Shown: positions 42,660-42,716 of the stretch, piece after piece
Layout of the letters: each line of letters starts with the position of its first letter
How positions within the stretch are numbered: the first letter of the stretch is position 1
Sequence record: PQ471516.1
From: Escherichia phage Turkey5
Direction: 5' to 3' (one strand)
DNA length: 64,000 nucleotides
Notes under the pieces: generated by a model
Told to the model about the DNA's origin: nothing
What the model saw: only the letters and a program-made list of their open reading frames with translations
Database searches by the model: none
Made by a program: the position numbers and the translations under genes

Positions 42660-42688
42660 TTGACACTAAGGTGCGTTTCAAATATAAT
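42660..42688 (+). promoter_or_regulatory. Consensus sigma70 promoter (TTGACA-17-TATAAT)
   Basis: Perfect hexamers; -10 lies in the loop of the 42668-42709 hairpin. Confidence 0.6.
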
Positions 42689-42716
42689 ACTCTTATTGAA
42701 ACGCACCTTCTTTTTT
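42668..42716 (+). terminator. Rho-independent terminator with 14-bp stem enclosing a promoter -10
   Basis: AAGGTGCGTTTCAA ... TTGAAACGCACCTT followed by CTTTTTT. Confidence 0.55.

Follow-up and report, generated by a model that had tools for sequence, protein, structure and literature searches.

Promoter-early stem-loops (PeSLs) are composite elements known from the T4-like myoviruses phi1/RB49, PST/T4 and nt-1/KVP40 (Arbiol et al. 2010, PMC2839356; Comeau et al. 2014, PMC4122927). They are made up of an intergenic AT-rich leader, a near-perfect TTGACA-N17-TATAAT promoter, a stem-loop, a Shine-Dalgarno sequence and a start codon (PMC2839356, PMC4122927). The stem-loop can take any of five positions, most often between the two promoter boxes or over the -10 (PMC2839356), and it is proposed to end transcription that arrives from upstream. 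For PeSLs of phi1/RB49, lacZ reporters revealed both promoter and terminator activity; one stem-loop terminated on a par with rrnB T1, and one promoter reached about 13,000 Miller units (PMC2839356). PeSLs have been proposed as drivers of modular gene shuffling and are linked to places where one close relative differs from another by an inserted, deleted or replaced gene (PMC2839356, PMC4122927). They also occur as similar repeated copies of about 100 bp that are concentrated in hyperplastic regions and flank ORFans, and recombination mini-circles are a further trait. In the RaK2-like jumbo phages CBB, GAP32 and PA5oct, RpoD-like early promoters have been predicted, but these accounts give promoters and terminators separately and describe neither hairpins wrapped around a -10 nor a fusion of promoter and terminator (PMC5259590, PMC7318152). 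The literature searched on RaK2, CBB, PA5oct and jumbo phages contained no report of promoter/terminator overlap in the RaK2-like clade, and a search for promoters inside terminators beyond PeSLs gave nothing usable. The kind of element described below is thus already known, as the PeSL; that this clade has it and conserves it seems not to have been reported in the literature searched.

The window analysed here is a stretch of 64,000 nucleotides from Escherichia phage Turkey5 (PQ471516.1) in which nearly all genes lie on the + strand. The 82-nt gap between a TelA-like gene (41523-42656, stop codon 42654-42656) and a DnaQ-like exonuclease gene (42739-43425) is filled by an element at 42660-42716 on the + strand. 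Direct reading gives a -35 hexamer TTGACA (42660-42665), a spacer of 17 nt and a -10 hexamer TATAAT (42683-42688). The 5' arm of a hairpin, AAGGTGCGTTTCAA (42668-42681), lies within the spacer, the -10 falls wholly inside a 14-nt loop (42682-42695), and the 3' arm, TTGAAACGCACCTT, follows at 42696-42709. The two arms, read directly and recovered by RNA folding, form 14 perfect Watson-Crick pairs, 6 of them G-C. The final base of the loop, an A at 42695, stands 7 nt past the -10 and is the predicted transcription start by standard sigma-70 geometry; the 3' arm would then be the beginning of the embedded promoter's own transcript. Directly after the stem comes CTTTTTT, a C and six T (42710-42716), the predicted release site for RNA reading through from the TelA-like gene. 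The ATG of the exonuclease gene (42739), with its Shine-Dalgarno sequence, is 51 nt downstream of the promoter match. All of this agrees with the sequence-only reading, which had pointed to a perfect promoter with its -10 in the loop of a 14-bp inverted repeat followed by a T-run.

The structure goes beyond chance. Folded as RNA, the hairpin has a dG of -19.2 kcal/mol (z = -8.5), which none of 200 shuffles equalled. In a second test, applied to each promoter-like site with 1000 shuffles, helices were sought between the spacer and the 35 nt past the -10, and no shuffle of this site produced a -10-bridging helix as strong (p <= 0.001). A direct count puts A+T at about 77% in the 30 nt before the promoter; the window as a whole has 64%. 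Leader, promoter, stem-loop, Shine-Dalgarno sequence and start codon follow one another as in a PeSL, and the structural features of that class are all present. There are also differences. The clade here is that of the RaK2-like jumbo phages (Asteriusvirus), unlike the Tequatrovirus-type T4-like phages of the PeSLs. At 42660 the whole -10 lies within the loop with the arms bracketing it. Whereas PeSLs are repeated as longer similar copies, 42660 and two further sites of the window discussed below (41447 and 55949) share their hexamers only and are too short as repeats for homologous recombination; and whereas PeSLs flank ORFans, the window elements flank conserved genes (TelA, exonuclease). 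All three sites have a 12/12 match to the sigma-70 consensus, intergenic and placed before a Shine-Dalgarno sequence and a start codon, with 33-51 nt to the start codons. They resemble the early promoters predicted for CBB, GAP32 and PA5oct, of the same clade, in having TTGAC... and TATAAT after AT-rich, UP-like sequence.

A stem followed by a C and six U at the 3' end of a gene is also what a canonical Rho-independent terminator looks like. The stem, which is longer than the 5 bp that such a terminator needs at least, the strong folding energy and a U-tract that lies 0-2 nt past the stem all agree with an intrinsic terminator at 42660. What sets it apart is the loop, which at 14 nt is not short and contains a functional-looking -10, and the 5' arm, which doubles as promoter spacer. 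Typical intrinsic terminators have loops of 3-8 nt; the loop here exceeds this, and termination at 42660 may therefore be only partial. The hairpin is absent from the program's own terminator scan because that scan allows only 3-8-nt loops.

The element at 42660 is probably a composite stop-and-restart signal of the PeSL type. Polymerase arriving from the TelA-like gene would transcribe both arms, the 14-bp hairpin would form just before the U-tract, and the read-through RNA would be released at about 42710-42716 by intrinsic termination. The same DNA would serve as a consensus promoter for host sigma-70, with the 5' arm as spacer and the -10 in the loop. Transcription restarted at about 42695 would give an RNA that holds only the 3' arm and cannot form the hairpin, so that it would pass the U-tract into the exonuclease gene and continue to the terminator at 45084-45104. 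The sequence-only reading had likewise argued that the promoter's own transcript lacks the 5' arm and would not terminate, and on paper this holds: an RNA started at about 42695 is predicted to fold no better than its shuffles (-3.0 kcal/mol, z -0.3). Termination, initiation and the position of the start are inferred from the sequence features, and the literature searched contained no usable transcript maps with 5' or 3' RNA ends for the Asteriusvirus clade.

Related genomes allow a closer look at what is being kept. A 2.1-kb query around the site is 99.2% identical to Escherichia phage vB_EcoM_JNE01 (about 98% over the whole window, with two large indels) and about 78% identical to a dozen other jumbo coliphages of ~350 kb; the annotated records among these relatives are classed as Asteriusvirus, the 121Q/PBECO4 group. 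Eleven Asteriusvirus relatives were aligned and other genera were then sampled. A scan of viral contigs with a single protein reached 121Q only, and it took a query built from an alignment to go beyond it. The gene order hyp-hyp-TelA-exonuclease is maintained across the RaK2-like clade. Among the Asteriusvirus relatives TTGACA and TATAAT at 42660 are unchanged, the sole exception being a 2-nt deletion affecting the -35 in an UNVERIFIED record, CMSTMSU. The stem is not constant. The 121Q group has GAGTGCGTTTTCAA/TTGAAACGCACTC, in which an A-T and a G-C pair of the window have become G-C and A-T, two compensatory swaps, and it also has a T-run after the stem. Phage A4 has an unrelated hairpin, ATGTGCCC(ATT)/(AAT)GGGCACAT (full form ATGTGCCCATT/AATGGGCACAT), which again forms over TATAAT, with a weaker T-rich tail. 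Extra pairs shrink the loop to 6 nt in 121Q and to 4 nt in A4. Selection therefore acts on the promoter as well as on the pairing, for the hexamers stay the same around a stem that co-varies or gives way to another. Conservation in related genomes, on which the sequence-only reading had made its proposal depend, is therefore present in Asteriusvirus, with the hairpin either kept or replaced around TATAAT.

More distant phages have a simpler arrangement at the homologous junction. RaK2, Munch, Hallingskeid, EJP2, CBB and 13 metagenomic loci carry a canonical hairpin there, rich in G and C, with 4-6 nt in its loop and a T-run behind it, none of them has a promoter at this position, and the record of phage Munch annotates a terminator. 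The terminator role of 42660 fits well, because these distant genera hold a plain terminator at the same junction. The TelA/exonuclease junction thus appears to be an old termination point, and Asteriusvirus seems to thread a consensus promoter through the terminator. The proposal that terminator and promoter share one structure gains support from all three observations, the invariant hexamers, the co-varying stem and the plain terminator elsewhere.

It could be argued that a promoter-like match over a terminator hairpin is a coincidence and that the promoter is non-functional. Some counts point that way: loose 9/12 matches are not enriched in the window (77 against 85 expected), and half of the matches of at least 11/12, of which there are 28 against 2.4 expected, lie inside genes. 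Perfect 12/12 promoters behave differently, with eight on the + strand, which is the coding strand, and none on the - strand, where 0.065 are expected per strand. In A4 the spacer and the loop change completely around constant hexamers, and the match in the window lies 51 nt before a start codon with a Shine-Dalgarno sequence. Coincidence is accordingly a very improbable explanation.

The sequence-only reading went further and held that the same arrangement recurs at 41447, 55949 and 40247. This is overstated, because only 42660 has a T-run after the helix; at the other three sites it is absent. At 41447-41497 (+ strand), upstream of the TelA-like gene, a TTGACA-17-TATAAT promoter has a helix that bridges the -10 and the predicted start, with GTGCTG (41460-41465) and CAGCAC (41489-41494) on either side of TATAAT (41470-41475) and an extended form TAGGTGCTGT/GCAGCACTTA. 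The leader, aataaagaataaaataactg, is also AT-rich. The helix that had been noted here, as the weaker of the examples, is real and well above chance (p = 0.003, 1000 shuffles). At 55949-55983 (+ strand) the reported GGGAGT (55963-55968) and ACTCCC (55978-55983) do surround the TATAAT (55972-55977) of another TTGACA-17-TATAAT promoter, and taken alone this bridging helix is marginal (p = 0.07, 1000 shuffles). At 40247 the hairpin that had been said to overlap the -10, a GAGTA/TACTC stem at 40260-40276, exists, but it is not above chance and not the minimum-energy structure. The actual fold is a 6-bp hairpin ACATAC/GTATGT (40250-40255 and 40265-40270) within the spacer of a TTGACA-17-TATACT promoter, and the terminator is separate: a canonical hairpin (40207-40234, plus T-run) stands 12 nt ahead of this promoter (whole arrangement 40207-40275, + strand). 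A stable stem-loop that overlaps or adjoins the promoter, as in PeSLs, is thus found at 42660, 41447, 55949 and 40250-40270, with covariation at the first three and a compensatory change in JNE01 at the last. The remaining 25 of the 28 promoter-like sites of the window, 40247 included, have bridging-helix p-values above 0.08. An Rfam search over the window returned only four tRNAs and no match at the four sites.

The helix at 41447 is the most widely conserved. Of 19 distinct lineages, 17 have a TelA-upstream promoter that matches 11-12 of 12 consensus positions, and L028 and L029 have one that matches 9/12. All 19, which span at least six genera, have a helix that joins the spacer to sequence past the -10, with shuffle p <= 0.01 in 13. 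Its arms differ between lineages (GTGCTG, GTGTTGCTCG with 10 perfect pairs in A4, GAGTATCGG, AGATTGCTG, TAAGTACTG, GAGAGTG and GGGAGTAT), and the loop ranges from 9 to 27 nt. The pattern is covariation rather than mere inheritance. This rests on the shuffle tests for each lineage and on direct listing of the arms: a MAFFT alignment of the TelA-upstream region put the 3' arms out of register, with loop lengths differing, and was not used for pair counts, and a covariance model built from three sequences of the same geometry gave spurious matches, missed most lineages and was dropped. The 55949 helix is GGGAGTA/TACTCCC in JNE01, GGAGTAT/ATACTCC in 121Q and CGAGAGT/ACTCTCG in A4, where a G-C pair has become A-T by compensatory change and TCTTTT follows; RaK2 has neither gap nor promoter at this position. 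The 40247 spacer hairpin is ACAGAC/GTCTGT in JNE01 against ACATAC/GTATGT in the window, a compensatory pair among five differences in a 95-nt gap.

What these hairpins do is less clear than at 42660. Those at 41447 and 55949 are not classical terminators, because they have no U-tract, and their most likely role, which is weakly supported, is one in read-through RNA, where they would attenuate transcription, make it pause or stabilise 3' ends. At 40247 a strong terminator stands 12 nt upstream and yet the spacer hairpin persists, which a block to read-through does not easily explain. It is also conceivable that all of the hairpins are mainly processing or stability elements of the upstream message, protecting its 3' end or offering a nuclease site, and overlap the promoters through tight intergenic packing. 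The lack of a U-tract at 41447 and 55949 would agree with this, as would the short gaps at the four sites (57-95 nt) and the position of several stop codons: the -35 TTGACA at 24497 (24497-24525) and that at 55949 (55949-55954) each contain the TGA of the ORF before them, and the TAA (40219-40221) of the gene at 39418-40221 lies in the loop of that gene's own terminator. Such a role is nevertheless unlikely, since the U-tract at 42660 is complete and other genera have a canonical terminator in its place, and 6-bp stems are too short for RNase III. At 24497 the -35 is also bracketed by a 7-bp helix, GATGGTG/CACCATC.

Another possibility is that the inverted repeats act as DNA, either as cruciforms or strand hairpins that expose or distort the -10 under supercoiling, or as palindromic regulator sites over the -10. 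Cruciforms driven by supercoiling have been built experimentally in promoter spacers. The arms are nearly all Watson-Crick, and a count of G.T against A.C pairs, which could reveal the folding strand, gave 415 and 414 and hence no preference; because the stems are almost purely Watson-Crick and these counts are equal, a role at the RNA level and one at the DNA level are inseparable by this means. It also counts for a DNA-level role that at 41447 the -10 and the start lie between the arms of a helix with no U-tract in 19 lineages from six genera or more, and that the spacer hairpin at 40247 is preserved by compensatory change though a strong terminator stands just upstream. Yet a single sequence-specific protein is hard to reconcile with arms that differ between sites (AAGGTGCGTTTCAA, GTGCTG, GGGAGT) and between lineages, loops that vary from 9 to 27 nt misfit a dimer of fixed geometry, and 6-bp stems with loops of 9-23 nt form cruciforms poorly. 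At 42660, moreover, the hairpin has a U-tract and stands in the place of a plain terminator. Taken together, a DNA-level role for the hairpins is distinctly improbable. For 41447 alone, it is a rather unlikely but more specific idea that the helix is a structure-dependent control element of the sigma-70 promoter, for example a hairpin formed by one strand of the DNA or by read-through RNA to tune initiation, and not the remnant of a terminator; it is suggested because the helix is kept in 19/19 lineages through at least six arm sequences and has no U-tract. If it were true, the 42660 site would combine this device with a terminator.

Hairpins are not a general property of promoters in this phage. 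Around the 28 promoter-like sites of the window, minimum-energy z-scores average -1.1 for intergenic and -0.7 for intragenic sites, with no general excess of structure. The survey was extended to JNE01 (346.8 kb assembled), which has 43 perfect promoters on the + strand and one on the - strand; among 117 + strand matches of at least 11/12, a significant -10-bridging helix was found in three, namely two of the window sites and JNE01 257723. The z-scores and this count rule out that promoters with hairpins are the norm here. What the region does have is a high density of signals. Terminator-like hairpins are enriched (25 against 8.8 expected), and in the window terminator and promoter are 23 nt apart at 49885/49926 and 12 nt apart at 40207/40247, and overlap at 42660. 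Overlaps of other kinds are frequent in JNE01: at 279985, 287040 and 288761 the -35 tops the 5' arm of a terminator and the T-run is the spacer (aaaGGGTTGAC-loop-GTCAGCCCTTTTTGcTATAAT), and at 61407 and 72629 the 5' arm of a terminator overlaps or abuts the -10. The 42660 element is one extreme of a continuum of packed stop and restart signals. A weak version of the promoter-in-terminator layout is found at 54147-54169, where a canonical terminator (ATCCACGTATACAATGCGTGGAT followed by TTTTTT) has TACAAT in its apex and CTGATA 16 nt upstream (9/12).

The early region of JNE01 has repeated cassettes with a stem-loop similar to that of the RB49/phi1 PeSLs. At 309-329 kb (L044, about 12950-32100) there are about ten near-identical cassettes between very small ORFs, of the form TTGACA-N9-AGTACTG-TATAAT-agtttACATCAAG-GGGGAGA(loop)TCTCCCC, with a G-run/C-run hairpin 12-16 nt past the -10. 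RNA started at the promoter itself would carry this hairpin at its 5' end. A second promoter-like class has the form gtgaTATAAT (an extended -10, TGnTATAAT) with TTGACA weak or missing, often just after a terminator-like hairpin; in the window it is found in the gaps at 1008, 5888, 16553, 17995, 28632, 35391, 49926, 57463, 58419 and 62394.

Changes in gene content at or beside such elements, as linked to PeSLs, are seen here in three anecdotal cases: the A4 exonuclease at 42660, A4 at 55949, where the 47-codon ORF that adjoins the element upstream is missing, and the nrdA/nrdB junction of JNE01. In the first case the megablast match between A4 and the window runs no further than the final base of the 42660 -35, and nucleotide identity falls from 75-90% to 50-70% across the exonuclease gene (42660-43500), with the drop starting at the -35. 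At the protein level the A4 exonuclease is 54% identical to that of the window, and TelA 88%. The pattern suggests that the A4 exonuclease is a putative allele replacement with its junction at the promoter/hairpin. In the nrdA/nrdB case the window has only a short junction (16609-16629, between nrdA at 14234-16552 and nrdB at 16647-17771), and JNE01 has an extra gene there for a 257-aa protein of YQxxTxDFIKEKW-like repeats, joined on the left at a -10-like gaTATAAT and on the right at a Shine-Dalgarno region. The two genomes also differ in a C5 DNA methyltransferase-like protein with a GFPCQAWS motif, which in the window is 286 aa long (52796-53656); the JNE01 orthologue (235566-237455) contains an in-frame insert of about 343 aa directly after GFPC (CFPEGT...VVHN|CQAWS), with intein end residues.

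It is worth noting that a short palindrome, AGTACT, is strongly over-represented, together with CAGTACTG, across the window (e.g. 30, 587, 753 ... 63676), in JNE01 and in loci L002-L032. The window has 140 copies of AGTACT and 29 of CAGTACTG; for AGTACT a Markov-3 model predicts 58 +/- 6 and base composition about 22. In JNE01 there are 473 copies of AGTACTG against about 21 expected, and 43 of these abut a -10-like hexamer. The AGTACT copies are mostly intragenic, fall in all three frames and have a median spacing of ~360 bp, and all of the RaK2-like lineages sampled show an excess, of 5-17-fold. No paper accounting for it was found in the literature searched.

The 42660 site leaves current concepts unchanged, and among these observations only the helix at the TelA promoter, deeply conserved and lacking a U-tract, could prove unusual. 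As a compact natural element that may terminate and then re-initiate transcription within 57 bp, 42660 is a candidate 'insulator' of interest to synthetic biology. It also marks boundaries of transcription units in genomes where more than 80% of the genes are unannotated. For the evolution of these phages it offers a snapshot in which one gene junction has a plain terminator in some genera and a promoter-threaded terminator in others. Overlapping promoter/terminator cassettes, described so far only for T4-like phages, appear to be in use in the RaK2/121Q jumbo phages as well, where selection maintains them.
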